64,000 nt of DNA from Clostridiales bacterium (lineage in GTDB: Bacteria > Bacillota > Clostridia > Saccharofermentanales > Saccharofermentanaceae), in contig JAFWMQ010000008.1 of assembly GCA_017510605.1 (NCBI GenBank), positions 82,234-146,233 of the forward strand, in the 5' to 3' direction. Shown here piece after piece: positions 32,550 through 37,474 of the stretch. Both the position numbers and the translations under genes were made by a program. Every line of letters begins with the position of its first letter. The first letter of the stretch is position 1. The notes under the pieces are model-generated. The model had not been told where the DNA came from and ran no database searches. It saw nothing but the letters and a program-made list of their open reading frames with translations.

Positions 32550-32622
32550 CACATTCGCGGTTATTTGTCTGAAAACTCGCCGTAATATTAAAAAATACTA
32601 ATTTATGCTACAATTACTCCCT

Positions 32623-33972
32623 ATGAAGAAACTACGGGTATTTACAGCAATTCTTTTTTGCAAGATCATCAGGGCTCTTGCAAGGCTTTTCGGGCGCGGA
32701 TCGAGCCTGCCCGGCAAATATGCCCTTAAGATATGTCCTGATATCCTGTCATGCTTAAAACTTCCGGAGTTATCTGTTGCTGTTACCGGCTCGAACGGTA
32801 AGACTTCCACGGTCGAGATGATCGCTCACATTCTTAAGAGCAACGGCCTTAAAGTCGCTTATAACAAGGAAGGCTCTAACCAGATCGAAGGAGTCGTAAC
32901 TTTTCTCATCGGTGATTCCACATTAGGAGGAAAAGTAAAGAGCGATGTTATTTTGCTCGAAGCTGATGAGAGATATTCAAGGCATATCTTCAAACATTTC
33001 CATCCGAAATATTTCGTTATAAACAACCTGTACAGGGATCAGATGACGAGGAACGGCCATCCAGAATGGATCAAAAGTATTATAGGTGATGCGATCTACG
33101 ATGATATGACACTGATACTCAACAGTGATGATCCGCTGGTCGCAAGCTTTGGCAAGGACAGGGAAGGCACGATCTATTTCGGCGCTGACAGACTTGCTGC
33201 TGACAAAACGGTTCATGAGGGAATCTACAATGACGGTAAATATTGTCCTGTCTGCAAAAAGCCTATGGAATACGAGTACTACCACTACAATCACATCGGA
33301 AAGTTCAGGTGTACATCCTGCGGCTTCGCAAGGCATGATACTGATCACTCCCTTACCGGTATGAATGAAGCAGACGGCAGGGCTTCTATAACGATAGACG
33401 GAAAATACGATATACCTGTTTTCTTTACAGGCATTTACCATTGCTATAACATTCTCGCGGCTTTCACTGCTTCGGTCGCGGCCGGAATCGCTCCGGAAAA
33501 AGCAGCTGAATCGCTCGGAGGATATGTCCTTAAGTCAGGACGTATTTCCGATTTTACTTTGGGAAACTTAGAGGGCAGACTGCTTCTTTCCAAGCATGAG
33601 AACTCGGTGTCCTATGACCGCTCGATCGATGTTGTTGTAAACGACAAGCGAAGGAAGAGCGTCATGATAATAGTTGACGCGATAAGCCGCAAATATTACA
33701 CCTCGGATTCGAGCTGGCTTTGGGATATTAATTTCGAGAAACTGATCGGTGCGGATATTGATAAGATCATTCTCGCAGGCCAGTATTGTGACGATCTGGC
33801 TGTCAGGTTTGAACTGGGAGGCGCGGACAGTTCGAAAACAGTATTTTTCGAGACTGTTCAGGAAGCGGCAGATTACTGCAGAAATAACCTTGATTCGTTC
33901 CTTTATGTCATCACATGTTTCTCCGACAAGGATAAGATCCTTTCTATCGTTACAAGGAGGGAACTTGCATGA
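32623..33972 (+). CDS. murT: Lipid II isoglutaminyl synthase subunit MurT (Mur ligase with DUF1727)
   Basis: VTGSNGKTS, LEADE, NLYRDQMTRNG, CPVC...CTSC insert, DSSWLWD; overlaps a gatD-like gene. Confidence 0.88.
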   Translation: MKKLRVFTAILFCKIIRALARLFGRGSSLPGKYALKICPDILSCLKLPELSVAVTGSNGKTSTVEMIAHILKSNGLKVAYNKEGSNQIEGVVTFLIGDSTLGGKVKSDVILLEADERYSRHIFKHFHPKYFVINNLYRDQMTRNGHPEWIKSIIGDAIYDDMTLILNSDDPLVASFGKDREGTIYFGADRLAADKTVHEGIYNDGKYCPVCKKPMEYEYYHYNHIGKFRCTSCGFARHDTDHSLTGMNEADGRASITIDGKYDIPVFFTGIYHCYNILAAFTASVAAGIAPEKAAESLGGYVLKSGRISDFTLGNLEGRLLLSKHENSVSYDRSIDVVVNDKRRKSVMIIVDAISRKYYTSDSSWLWDINFEKLIGADIDKIILAGQYCDDLAVRFELGGADSSKTVFFETVQEAADYCRNNLDSFLYVITCFSDKDKILSIVTRRELA

Positions 33973-34685
33973 AGATCCTGTATCTCTATCCGGATTTTAT
34001 GAGCCTTTACGGTGATAACGGAAATGTCAGGATCATGGAGCGCAGGCTCAGGGATCAGGGCTTTGACGTTGAGACCGCAAGAGCCACGATCACTGATGAT
34101 CTTATCAGTTTTGAAGATATTGATTTTGTCTATATGGGTTCTGGTTTTGAGTCCAACAGGAATCTTGCAGCCGTTCATCTTGCCCGTTTCAAAGATCAGT
34201 TGATCAAAGCGGTTGATGACGGAGTCCCTATGCTTTTTACAGGCAACAGTTATGACATTCTCGGCAGCGGGATCAGGACTTTTGACGGAAGTGTTGTTGA
34301 AGGCCTCGGGTTATTTGACTATTCGTTCACCGAGCAGCTCGAAAAAAGATATACCGGCGATGTTGTACTGAAAGACCCCGGAACCGGTGAACTGTATGCC
34401 GGATTCGTAAACCGTGCCGGTGTTCCGGATGACCCTTCCTGTTTTGAATTTGAAGTCATAAAAACAATCGGAAATGTACCCATGAGAAAAGACGGTGTCC
34501 GCAAGAATAATCTTCTCGGTATCAGCCTTATCGGCCCTGTTCTTCTCAAGAATCCGAAGATCGCAGAATCATTTGTAAAGACCATATGTGAGCGCAAAGG
34601 CTCGGAATACAAAGAGATCAGTTATCCTCACTCGGAAAGAAGCCACGATAAAACATACAAAGCACTTCTCAGCGCTGAAGACTGA
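33969..34685 (+). CDS. gatD: GatD/CobQ-like glutamine amidotransferase homologue with catalytic residues substituted
   Basis: LYPDFMSLYGDNGNV, YMGSG, GPVLLKNP conserved; the nucleophile and His positions read G and I. Confidence 0.8.
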   Translation: MKILYLYPDFMSLYGDNGNVRIMERRLRDQGFDVETARATITDDLISFEDIDFVYMGSGFESNRNLAAVHLARFKDQLIKAVDDGVPMLFTGNSYDILGSGIRTFDGSVVEGLGLFDYSFTEQLEKRYTGDVVLKDPGTGELYAGFVNRAGVPDDPSCFEFEVIKTIGNVPMRKDGVRKNNLLGISLIGPVLLKNPKIAESFVKTICERKGSEYKEISYPHSERSHDKTYKALLSAED

Positions 34686-34735: not shown

Positions 34736-35821
34736 ATGGCTGATACAATTAAATGCCCCAATTGCGGGTCTAATCTCACACTTAATGCTGACACTCAAAA
34801 ACTTGAATGTCCTAATTGCGGATCCACATTTGATCCCAATTCGCTTGCTGTAACGGTAGAAGAACTTGAAGCGAAGAAAGCAGAACCTACTGATCCTGCA
34901 CAGTCACAGCAGCCTCAGGGAGAAGAGCAGCCTCAGGGTGCTCCTGAACAGACCGAATTTGTATGCAATGCTTGCGGAGCCAAACTTGTAACTGACGCAC
35001 ATACTGCTGCAACTTTCTGTGCGTTCTGCGGATCTCCTGCACTTGTCGGAAAGAGACTGACCGAGCAGTTCCAGCCTCAGTACATGATTCCTTTCAAATA
35101 CTCAAGAAGCTCTGCCGAAGATGCTTTTTTCAAGTGGGCAGGCAAAGGCAAATGGACACCGTTCGGATTTGTTTCAAAGAAGAGCGTCCAGAAGATGACA
35201 GGTCTTTATGTCCCTTTCTGGCTCTTCAATATTAAAGCAACTATCGATGCGCACGGAACGGGCGATAAGATCCACTATAAAGGCAATGACGAGATCATCG
35301 AGACATTTTCTTTTGACAGGAATGCATCGCTCAGCTGGAGCCATGTACCGCTTGACGGTGAGACTAGGATCGATGACGCTCTGATGGAAGCTATCGAACC
35401 GTTCGATTTTAATGCCCTCATACCATACGACTACAGATATCTTCCGGGGTTCTATGCAGACAGGTTCGACCAGTCTCCCCAAGATCTTGCCGGCCGCGCA
35501 ACAAAGCGTGGAATGGACGGAATCGATAAGGCTCTCAAGGGTTCCTTGAAGGGTACTTTCGACAGATTTAACATCAAGGAGAACAAGAGCAGGATAGATT
35601 CGATGGAAGCAAACTATGCATTGCTCCCTGTATGGTTCCTGTCATACAAATACCGCAACAAGTTTTATTATTTTGCCATGAACGGACAGACCGGCGAAGT
35701 AGCAGGAAAGATCCCTGTAAGCCCGGTTAAGAAGATGATGTTCTTCTTTATCGTTCTCGGTATTCTGGCCGTCATTACAAGATTTGTCTTGGGCCTTATC
35801 ATGAGGGGGTTCTGGGGATGA
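34736..35821 (+). CDS. Multi-zinc-ribbon membrane-anchored protein
   Basis: CPNCG, CPNCG, CNACG, CAFCG; NGQTGEVAG; C-terminal TM. Confidence 0.82.
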   Translation: MADTIKCPNCGSNLTLNADTQKLECPNCGSTFDPNSLAVTVEELEAKKAEPTDPAQSQQPQGEEQPQGAPEQTEFVCNACGAKLVTDAHTAATFCAFCGSPALVGKRLTEQFQPQYMIPFKYSRSSAEDAFFKWAGKGKWTPFGFVSKKSVQKMTGLYVPFWLFNIKATIDAHGTGDKIHYKGNDEIIETFSFDRNASLSWSHVPLDGETRIDDALMEAIEPFDFNALIPYDYRYLPGFYADRFDQSPQDLAGRATKRGMDGIDKALKGSLKGTFDRFNIKENKSRIDSMEANYALLPVWFLSYKYRNKFYYFAMNGQTGEVAGKIPVSPVKKMMFFFIVLGILAVITRFVLGLIMRGFWG

Positions 35822-36705
35822 GTGATAATCTTGATATTAATGAAATGAATCAGTCTCAGGAGAAGGCCACGAAGCTCTCAGTCTTATCCGAGCTTAACGG
35901 AGCTTCTATCGGTGTAGGCATCGCGCTTATCTGCGTAATAATTGCAAGCGTTATGTTTTATATCTTTATGAACCTGTCGCCTAAAAAGACCGTTAAGGTC
36001 ATTGACGATGCCAATCTTTTTACGAGCCAGGAACTCGACAATATTACCGAAGAAGCGAAAAGACTTTCTAAAGAGAAAGATATCAACGTAGTCATCGTTA
36101 CTACTAAGGACAAAGGCAATAAATATTCGAATTCTGATGATGATGAGAAGAGATTTGCCGAAGATTTTTATATGGATCACGTAAAGACGGTTCCGCTTCA
36201 GAATAATTCGGGAGTCTGCATCCTGATCGATGTTACGCTCGATTATCAGGGCGGAAGATTCTTCTGGCTTTACACATACGGAACCGCCCACTTTGCTGTT
36301 GATGATGACGATTGTTACAGACTTTTCAGGAAATACATAACGCAGCTTGGAAACGGGGAATACGGTACCGCTGTTGAAGGTATCACTAAAGATCTCAAAT
36401 CATTCTCGTACCAGAATTACGGAGCCATAGTTTTCTTTACGATCGTTATTCCGATAGGATTGGCTTTGGTTATTACTGCTCTTGCATCTCCTAAGAGAAG
36501 ATTGGATAAGATGCCTGCGATCAGTACTTATTCCATTCCCGGAACCAACAAAGTCGAAAAACATGATGTTTTCAAGAGTAAAAAGGTTATTCACCATGAA
36601 TCTTCGTCAAGCGGCGGAGGAGGCGGCTTCTCCGGCGGTGGCGGAGGCGGTTTCTCCGGTGGCGGAGGCGGCGGCTTCTCCGGCGGTGGCGGCGGACGCT
36701 TCTGA
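35818..36705 (+). CDS. TPM (DUF477) domain membrane protein with Gly-rich tail
   Basis: VIDDANLF, VVIVTT, GVCILID; C-terminal SSSGGGGGFSGG...GRF. Confidence 0.85.
   Translation: MSDNLDINEMNQSQEKATKLSVLSELNGASIGVGIALICVIIASVMFYIFMNLSPKKTVKVIDDANLFTSQELDNITEEAKRLSKEKDINVVIVTTKDKGNKYSNSDDDEKRFAEDFYMDHVKTVPLQNNSGVCILIDVTLDYQGGRFFWLYTYGTAHFAVDDDDCYRLFRKYITQLGNGEYGTAVEGITKDLKSFSYQNYGAIVFFTIVIPIGLALVITALASPKRRLDKMPAISTYSIPGTNKVEKHDVFKSKKVIHHESSSSGGGGGFSGGGGGGFSGGGGGGFSGGGGGRF
36613..36702 (+). repeat. In-frame 3x (G5-6-F-S) repeat
   Basis: GGCGGxTTCTCCGGxGGx units read directly. Confidence 0.85.
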
Positions 36706-36748
36706 TGTGTTAAAATACCGCGTAATTTTGTATTAGCGAAGGATTATT

Positions 36749-37474
36749 ATGCTCAGCATCGTCGTGCCTGCCTATAACGAAGGCGAACACATCTATGATA
36801 ATCTCATGATCATTGACAAGGCGCTCAGTGCGTTTACGTCAGATTATGAGATCATAGCGGTCAACGACGGCAGCAAGGATAATACCGGCAGCGAAGTCAG
36901 GCGCGCGGCTTCCGATAACAGCAGGATTAAAGACTTCGGTTATGATGACAACCGCGGTAAAGGCGGAGCGGTAGCCTGGGGTGCCGTAAACAGCAAAGGT
37001 GATATCGTTGGATTCATTGATGCCGATCTTGACCTGTCACCTGATCTTATCAGCGGCTATTTTGTGGAAATGAGCGTTGATGGTGCAGATATCGTCATCG
37101 GCTCGAAGATGCATAAGGATTCCAAACTCGAATATCCTTTTGCCAGAAAAGTATTCTCTTTCTGCTATTACATCATGTTAAAGGTCCTGTTCGGCCTTAA
37201 GTGCCATGATACTCAGACCGGTCTTAAGCTCTACAAGGGTTCGCTCATAAGAGAGATCGCTCCCTTAAGGAGAATTGACGGGTACGCATTCGATATAGAA
37301 CTTTTGGCACTGGCTACCAAGAAGAAGGCCAAGCTTGTGGAAATGCCTGTCGAGCTAAACTACACAAGAGGACAGTCTTTTGGAAGGATCAAGTTCAAGG
37401 ATGTTTGGAAGATGTTCACCGATACCTGGAAGATCTGGTGGAATCTGAGAATTAAGAAGAATTATTTTAAGTGA
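36749..37474 (+). CDS. GT2 glycosyltransferase (polyprenol-phosphate glycosyltransferase-like)
   Basis: SIVVPAYNE, VNDGSKD, GKGGAV, FIDADL, DTQTGLK, FDIELL. Confidence 0.92.
   Translation: MLSIVVPAYNEGEHIYDNLMIIDKALSAFTSDYEIIAVNDGSKDNTGSEVRRAASDNSRIKDFGYDDNRGKGGAVAWGAVNSKGDIVGFIDADLDLSPDLISGYFVEMSVDGADIVIGSKMHKDSKLEYPFARKVFSFCYYIMLKVLFGLKCHDTQTGLKLYKGSLIREIAPLRRIDGYAFDIELLALATKKKAKLVEMPVELNYTRGQSFGRIKFKDVWKMFTDTWKIWWNLRIKKNYFK

Follow-up and report, generated by a model that had tools for sequence, protein, structure and literature searches.

A 64,000-nucleotide stretch of a Clostridiales bacterium genome from the family Saccharofermentanaceae (contig JAFWMQ010000008.1 of assembly GCA_017510605.1, positions 82,234 to 146,233; hereafter the window) encodes a homolog of the MurT/GatD pair in which the GatD subunit lacks both its nucleophilic cysteine and its catalytic histidine. 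MurT/GatD is essential in Streptococcus pneumoniae and is described as a glutamine amidotransferase. From sequence comparison, we put a probability of roughly 55% on the reading that the Cys-less GatD is a glutaminase-dead scaffold subunit kept by an ammonia-dependent MurT that amidates lipid II. This was also the core of the original prediction made from the window, and it is the best-supported reading of the data, based on the lost pocket residues, the kept fold, the purifying selection on gatD, the intact catalytic residues of MurT, the precedent of an engineered Cys-to-Gly mutant (PMC3266927), and the rumen and gut origin of the relatives. That prediction treated the Cys-less GatD as a single case, and what we found is a large and old family.

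The two genes are located on the forward strand and overlap by four bases:

32605..33972, + strand: murT homolog, 455 amino acids (aa); Pfam Mur_ligase_M 45 bits, MurT_C 67.9 bits; S. aureus MurT 6gs2_B with E = 4.9e-54
33969..34685, + strand: GatD homolog without Cys and His, 238 aa; Pfam GATase_3; AlphaFold2 (AF2) model with a predicted local distance difference test (pLDDT) score of 96.1; Foldseek template modelling (TM) score of 0.88 to 5n9m_A
33969..33972, + strand: ATGA, overlap of the murT stop and gatD start in the sequence, read as translational coupling

The class I glutamine amidotransferase fold of the CobB/CobQ-like type is assigned to the smaller protein by Pfam GATase_3 (PF07685; 49.6 bits, cut-off 27), and among solved structures it is closest to the GatD proteins of S. 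aureus (5n9m/6gs2, E = 5e-29), S. pneumoniae, and S. pyogenes. The structural matches agree with this, as GatD chains are the best Foldseek hits of the AF2 model. In the larger protein, the MurT_C domain (DUF1727, PF08353) is well above its cut-off of 25 bits, and the Mur_ligase_M domain, Cys4 zinc ribbon, MurT_C, and DSSWLWD motif expected of an intact MurT partner are all present. The NCBIfam scores of both proteins are far below the equivalog cut-offs (120.2 vs. 450 and 78 vs. 400 bits for GatD with NF052463 and NF045636; 205 vs. 800 bits for MurT). The window pair provides the sole MurT_C match and the sole above-cut-off GATase_3 match of the 2.9-Mb genome; a second canonical GatD/MurT was not found in this genome, in which PF07685 gave two further weak matches below the cut-off. 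A murT start at 32605 (MLQLLPMKK...) is possible; the ATG at 32623 may be the true start, and the MurT proteins of several close relatives begin at its equivalent (MKIRVF). Scans for promoters and terminators yielded sites no more numerous than in shuffled sequence.

Aligned to S. aureus GatD with HMMER, the segment MLFTGNSYDILG stands opposite LTICGGYQFLG, with Cys94 replaced by Gly92 (GGC, 34242-34244), and LLGISLIGP stands opposite LLGTYLHGP, with His189 replaced by Ile188 (ATC, 34530-34532). Both replacements had been called from the sequence beforehand and are confirmed by this alignment and by inspection of the two codons, as is the presence of the N-terminal LYPD..LYGDNGN. Four segments describe the former glutaminase pocket:

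34137..34151, + strand: GSGFE (G57-E61) in place of the canonical GGGxD oxyanion strand
34239..34247, + strand: T91-G92-N93 where canonical GatD has the nucleophile elbow I-C94-G
34347..34349, + strand: R127, the equivalent of the glutamine-capturing S. aureus R128, retained (97% of the Cys-less family, 100% of canonical GatD)
34530..34538, + strand: I188-G189-P190 in place of the canonical H189-G-P

Mapped across taxa, the substitution recurs in Clostridia, Erysipelotrichaceae, and gut metagenome-assembled genomes (MAGs) of other Bacilli. A GatD homolog is encoded in 35 of 40 related genomes, in a single copy in all but one of these, and the extracted and aligned sequences fall into two sharply distinct types:

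Nucleophile elbow: canonical [ILV]CGG[YF]Q, Cys-less TGN
His segment: canonical HG[PS], Cys-less [IL]GP
Oxyanion strand: canonical GGGxD, Cys-less GxxxE
Third motif: canonical FENHxG, Cys-less degenerate

Within the organism's own GTDB genus (25 genomes), the window variant is found in 10 species (52-75% identity), a distant Cys-less variant in 5 (~30% identity), and a canonical pair in 7, with no pair in the remaining 3. A scan with one genome per species yielded 80 loci, in which the Cys-less carriers comprise Saccharofermentans and related rumen MAGs, a Ruminococcus MAG, and Lachnospiraceae bacterium AC2029; further carriers are Erysipelotrichaceae, Candidatus Coprovivens, and other gut MAGs labelled "Bacilli" or "Tenericutes". 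The named carriers are rumen and gut organisms, with cattle, sheep, goats, buffalo, deer, horse, and rabbit as hosts; cultured ones include Ruminococcaceae bacterium AB4001 and YAD3003. The family is also large beyond these genomes. A profile search of 1.84 billion cluster representatives returned 2,893 relatives at E ≤0.001, of which 424 reach E ≤1e-30, mostly metagenome proteins, and each of the best 150 family representatives (50%-identity clusters) lacks both Cys and His at the catalytic columns. In an even sample of 399 Clostridia genomes, 217 encode a GatD homolog and 28 of these score as Cys-less, distributed over at least 12 GTDB families; the separating score was checked on 29 extracted loci, where Cys-less sequences reached at least 159 bits and two canonical ones 155 and 153 bits. 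The recurrence of TGN and [IL]GP in congeners, in a distant subclade, and in the 150 representatives indicates that these substitutions are due neither to chance nor to sequencing error. One Cys-less GatD, from a MAG labelled Muribaculaceae (Bacteroidota; L076, CAZJHG010000002.1), is nested among Candidatus Coprovivens sequences, which probably points to wrong binning or labelling of the MAG and not to a transfer.

The conservation pattern of the family is that of a lost active site. Cysteine is invariant at the nucleophile column of 34 canonical sequences and occurs there in none of 151 family sequences, and the elbow of the Cys-less type is itself conserved (T 90%, G 93%, N 92% of 144 family sequences). 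The second and third Gly of the oxyanion GGG, 100% conserved in canonical GatD, are variable, and the canonical Asp of this strand has become Glu in 96% of the family. The His site is occupied by L, I, T, or V but never by H, while the adjoining G and P are 99% conserved, and the FENH motif is lost. In contrast, the MurT-contact segment GPxLxKNP is kept (N195 98%, P196 97%). We compared the ~63 positions conserved to at least 85% in canonical GatD with the Cys-less family: 18 are kept, including L13, G15, and N19 of the LYGDxGN loop as well as R127, G189, L192, N195, and P196; 5 are swapped for another conserved residue (D to E61, I to T91, C to G92, G to N93, and Y to I102); and 40 have lost conservation, including the two GGG glycines, Q98, E147-N148-H149, Y186, and the His. 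Only 3 positions are conserved in the Cys-less family alone. Losing 40 positions and gaining 3 is what one expects when a scaffold is kept and its active site is lost, and not when a new site has arisen. In two Erysipelotrichaceae MAGs (L095, L100), the elbow reads TGG rather than TGN and Ser occupies the His position; the pocket has thus been remodelled further within the Cys-less family.

These data also bear on whether the Cys-less GatD might still be an amidohydrolase that uses Thr91 or, where present, a Ser at the Cys site as the nucleophile, or that accepts another amide donor. Thr91 lies directly beside the former nucleophile position and has the conservation given above, and Ser occupies the Cys site in 9 of the 151 family sequences. 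However, 11 of the 151 have V, I, or F in place of Thr91, the pocket contains neither a His nor another evident general base, the oxyanion glycines are gone, and a C94S variant of S. aureus GatD was inactive (Nöldeke et al.). Retained amidohydrolase activity is thus very unlikely.

The loss of catalytic residues, together with the low NCBIfam scores, could alternatively mark the pair as a decaying or non-functional remnant, which the selection analysis contradicts. Among the usable gatD pairs of the Saccharofermentans clade, the ratio of nonsynonymous to synonymous substitution rates (dN/dS) has a median of 0.13 and a maximum of 0.33, and the proteins are still 51-76% identical although synonymous sites are near saturation (65-76% with these sites saturated), indicating that the gene is maintained by purifying selection. 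Intact reading frames at no fewer than 75 loci, the depth and monophyly of the family, and the intact MurT active site speak against decay as well, and we give this explanation almost no credence. Nevertheless, constraint on the Cys-less GatD is relaxed relative to its MurT: the median GatD/MurT divergence ratio is 1.55 for Cys-less vs. 1.09 for canonical pairs, and at ~68% MurT identity the corresponding GatD identities are 51% and 69%.

Quick maximum-likelihood searches, with support from the Shimodaira-Hasegawa-like approximate likelihood ratio test (SH-aLRT) only, separate the Cys-less and canonical types as the two sides of one branch in a GatD tree of 110 sequences (SH-aLRT 100, branch length 1.0). 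The tree of the MurT partners shows the same split (SH-aLRT 99) and is congruent with the GatD tree, suggesting a single origin of the Cys-less GatD and its co-inheritance with MurT. The murT gene is directly upstream of the Cys-less gatD in 79 of the 80 loci, and three family representatives (P0144, P0165, and P0255) are natural single-chain MurT-GatD fusions of ~700 aa; a canonical MurT-GatD fusion also occurs in a genome of the same taxonomic order (L021 in G030). Across the subclades, murT is the only common neighbour, and no third conserved gene, such as one for an alternative glutaminase, was found beside the pair. Neither the 41 relatives nor the 399 class-level genomes include one that encodes a canonical and a Cys-less pair together, and in genomes with two copies both pairs are either canonical or Cys-less. 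That the two types never occur together, with one pair per genome, argues that both do the same job. Two divergent Cys-less pairs and no canonical one are encoded by the Clostridia genomes G034 (L032, L115), G324 (L162, L165), and G417 (L161, L163); those of G417 are in tandem on one contig, and the second MurT there was recovered only as a short tblastn match (query residues 51-181) with the P-loop GTKGKT.

The catalytic core of the partner MurT is preserved, and its GatD-facing side is changed. Conservation values refer to 69 MurT partners of Cys-less GatD, and the relevant segments of the window MurT are as follows:

32788..32805, + strand: P-loop GSNGKT (G62-T67); Lys66 corresponds to S. 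pneumoniae Lys59; G, G, and K 100% conserved
33034..33060, + strand: interface/channel loop RDQMTRNGH (R144-H152); canonical RDQ[LM]DRxGE
33244..33321, + strand: Cys4 zinc ribbon (C214, C217, C236, C239); the four Cys 94-100% conserved
33706..33726, + strand: DSSWLWD; D368 (88%) and D374 (100%) correspond to S. aureus D349 and D355

The P-loop, the Mg-binding acidic cluster E119/D121/E122, the acceptor carboxylate contact N92, and R144-D145 are all 94-100% conserved, and N141, Q146, the hinge R313, K330, N333, D368, W371, and D374 are kept as well. D368 was matched by counting along the alignment to S. aureus D349, the Asp of GRDTSW, which is the third triad residue and part of the gate facing GatD. 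In S. pneumoniae, the equivalents of D368 and D374 (D355 and D361) belong to this negatively charged gate, and the RDQxDRxGE loop is located at the GatD interface, where it could form an ammonia path (Morlot 2018). In this loop, the canonical-invariant D137 (S. aureus numbering, also below) is replaced by T, A, P, or S, and the likewise invariant E141 by His in 81% of the partners (His152 in the window MurT). Furthermore, KNP has become KN[SN], P317 is replaced by S or N, R375 is exchanged for Y or F, and of the residues preceding D349, N341 is replaced by D (90%) and N343 by R (94%), with D346 and G347 variable. In the window MurT, VDAISRKYYTS and TRNGH stand where canonical MurT has LNDNxADGR and DRxGE.

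These exchanges raise the question of whether the MurT of the Cys-less type joins the D-Glu alpha-carboxyl to an amine other than ammonia, with glycine, diamino acids, and polyamines as candidates and GatD as a structural or specificity subunit. Canonical-invariant residues of the cleft and the GatD side (N341, N343, E141, P317, R375) have been swapped for other conserved residues, the replaced LNDNxADGR adjoins the modelled stem peptide, the lining of the dead pocket includes conserved Arg, Glu, Thr, and Asn residues, and some genomes encode two divergent pairs. Precedents for such chemistry exist: glycine-substituted D-Glu and group B cross-links are known alpha-carboxyl substitutions, Micrococcus luteus is known to add free glycine to D-Glu in an ATP-dependent reaction at the lipid stage, and group B peptidoglycan is known from Erysipelotrichaceae, among which the Cys-less type occurs. 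However, the two GatD types replace each other within one genus without ever co-occurring, which is easier to understand if the product is the same, as other enzymes would have to change in step if the chemotype shifted within a genus. In addition, GatD shows a loss of constraint rather than a new conserved site, and the pair has no third conserved gene. The distance between C94 and the ATP gamma-phosphate exceeds 40 Å in S. aureus and is ~20 Å in a modelled closed state (Nöldeke et al.); even when closed, the GatD pocket is more than 20 Å away from the MurT ATP site, so it cannot present a substrate directly. We therefore rate the use of another amine below that of ammonia because of the substitution of types among relatives, the loss of constraint, and the distance of the pocket, and regard it as unlikely. 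The stricter proposal that the module is an ATP-dependent ligase attaching an amino acid or diamine to the lipid II D-Glu alpha-carboxyl, and no amidating enzyme at all, appears quite unlikely; if it were true, gut Firmicutes would use the module to form either the initial link of group B-type cross-bridges or a stem peptide substituted with glycine or a polyamine.

The ammonia-dependent reading draws on a direct experimental precedent. The S. aureus GatD C94G variant, with Gly at the nucleophile position as in the natural family, loses all glutamine-dependent lipid II amidation, but its complex with MurT retains NH3- and NH4Cl-dependent amidation at pH 8.5 (Münch et al. 2012, PMC3266927). In the same study, MurT alone and GatD alone were inactive with any donor. 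The statement in the original prediction that MurT can use free ammonia in vitro must therefore be amended, as it is the MurT/GatD complex that does so. The C94G mutant differs from the natural proteins in that its His and remaining pocket are intact and in its use of ammonia at pH 8.5 only, whereas the natural family has remodelled the whole pocket along with the facing MurT loops. Natural Cys-less GatD homologs are not described in the searchable literature, with subscription journals outside its coverage.

Compared with the GatD proteins of known structure (S. aureus 5n9m/6gs2, S. pneumoniae 6fqb, and S. pyogenes 9sq9), the Cys-less GatD shares the fold at 29% full-length identity, the murT gene directly upstream, the LYGDxGN loop, the R128 equivalent, and the GPxLxKNP segment; it differs from them in lacking Cys94, His189, the GGG oxyanion strand, and FENH, and in its position on the opposite side of the fully supported branch. 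A similar fate of a class I glutaminase module is known from carbamoyl-phosphate synthetase I of ureotelic vertebrates, an ammonia-dependent enzyme whose glutaminase domain has no catalytic Cys and was kept as a structural part after the switch from glutamine to ammonia. The two systems differ in that the carbamoyl-phosphate synthetase is an unrelated, eukaryotic mitochondrial synthetase with a fused glutaminase domain and another acceptor. PMC7657897 deals with a related case. MurT-family ligases working without a glutaminase are also represented by the archaeal "MurT-like" genes (PMC11915815). GatD is absent from these archaeal systems, whereas in the Clostridia pair it is retained, conserved, and sometimes fused to MurT.

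In the proposed mechanism, murT and gatD would encode a two-subunit enzyme amidating the D-glutamate of lipid II, with a GatD subunit unable to hydrolyse glutamine. The surfaces that hold and activate MurT are kept, namely the LYGDxGN loop, whose Tyr plugs the channel entrance, and the GPxLxKNP segment, and GatD may have been retained because MurT needs it. MurT, whose ATP-dependent site for carboxylate activation is complete, would activate the alpha-carboxyl of D-Glu as an acyl phosphate for attack by free ammonia, which might enter through the former glutaminase pocket and the acidic MurT gate formed by D368 and D374. At neutral pH, the binding or deprotonation of ammonium may be aided by the altered loops of MurT and the newly conserved His152 among them. 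The data themselves show the substitutions and how widely they are conserved in the family, the coupling to MurT, the selection pattern, the fold, and the intact MurT motifs; lipid II as the acceptor, ammonia as the nucleophile, this entry route, and any role of His152 are what we infer for the pair.

The habitat fits this mechanism in part. The ammonia-rich setting suggested in the original prediction is consistent with carriers from rumen and gut; however, canonical pairs are found in the same habitat and even the same genus, including rumen species, which makes the habitat argument only permissive. The organism's own genome encodes Amt and glutamine synthetases. A general loss of glutaminases from this genome was considered and rejected, as its other class I amidotransferases have intact Cys and His. 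Contigs C2 and C17 of this genome both give identical matches for PyrG, for a 643-aa frame containing Amt, and for a 713-aa frame resembling glutamine synthetase, in mirrored order, which reflects either a genuine large repeat or a segment duplicated in the assembly; the contamination estimate of the genome is 4.76%.

Besides the canonical pairs of congeners, several observations weigh against an ammonia-using enzyme with a mere scaffold subunit. With the S. aureus complex, ammonia served as donor at pH 8.5 but not at pH 7.5 (PMC3266927), so an enzyme using ammonia at neutral pH would need adaptations. The TrpG/PabA-like protein, CarA, GuaA, PyrG, and HisH of the organism keep GxCxGxQ and HPE, indicating that it has not generally moved to ammonia. 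On the MurT side, the replacement of LNDNxADGR, proposed to lie near the stem peptide, suggests that the acceptor or nucleophile might differ, and the conserved His and Arg gained at the interface, like the two divergent Cys-less pairs of some genomes, are left unexplained by a pure scaffold. Finally, the dead pocket contains R127, E61, and T91-G92-N93, for whose strong conservation a pure scaffold has no obvious need, and this hints at a ligand.

Such a ligand would be expected if the Cys-less GatD were a non-hydrolytic sensor, binding glutamine or another nitrogen-status metabolite via R127, E61, T91, and N93 and allosterically gating an ammonia-dependent MurT, which amounts to the scaffold reading with an added regulatory role. 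The near-invariance of the glutamine-capturing Arg and the conservation of T, G, N, and E in a pocket without catalytic residues are compatible with this idea, as is the dependence of MurT activity on GatD even with ammonia (PMC3266927). However, the 40 positions that lost conservation lie in and around this same pocket, and the residues that remain could be purely structural. A sensory role is thus distinctly unlikely, and the glutaminase-dead scaffold remains the reading we prefer.

The genomic neighbourhood of the pair varies among carriers. In the window, the Cys-less gatD is followed at 34736-37474 by genes for a 361-aa membrane protein with a double zinc ribbon, a 295-aa protein with a TPM domain and a C-terminal tail rich in Gly, and a glycosyltransferase of family 2 (GT2). 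These three genes are syntenic in 34-36 of the 38 Saccharofermentans-clade loci and were not found in other carriers. The canonical pairs of congeners occupy a different locus, and in one species with the distant Cys-less variant the pair has the GT2 and HD genes as neighbours, as does the window pair.

Work on staphylococci, streptococci, and mycobacteria has examined MurT/GatD as a target for antibacterials, and the present data show that a large, conserved family in gut and rumen Firmicutes bears the natural equivalent of the inactivating C94G mutation. This corrects the database label "glutamine amidotransferase" for the Cys-less proteins, and inhibitors of the glutaminase site are not expected to act on commensals that carry this type. 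If the ammonia-dependent reading is true, cell-wall maturation in these organisms would be linked directly to the availability of ammonia in the gut; alternatively, the module may modify D-Glu in another way. In both cases, the family offers a natural system for studying the role of GatD toward MurT beyond the supply of ammonia, and the Cys-less or canonical MurT-GatD fusions would suit structural work on the complex.

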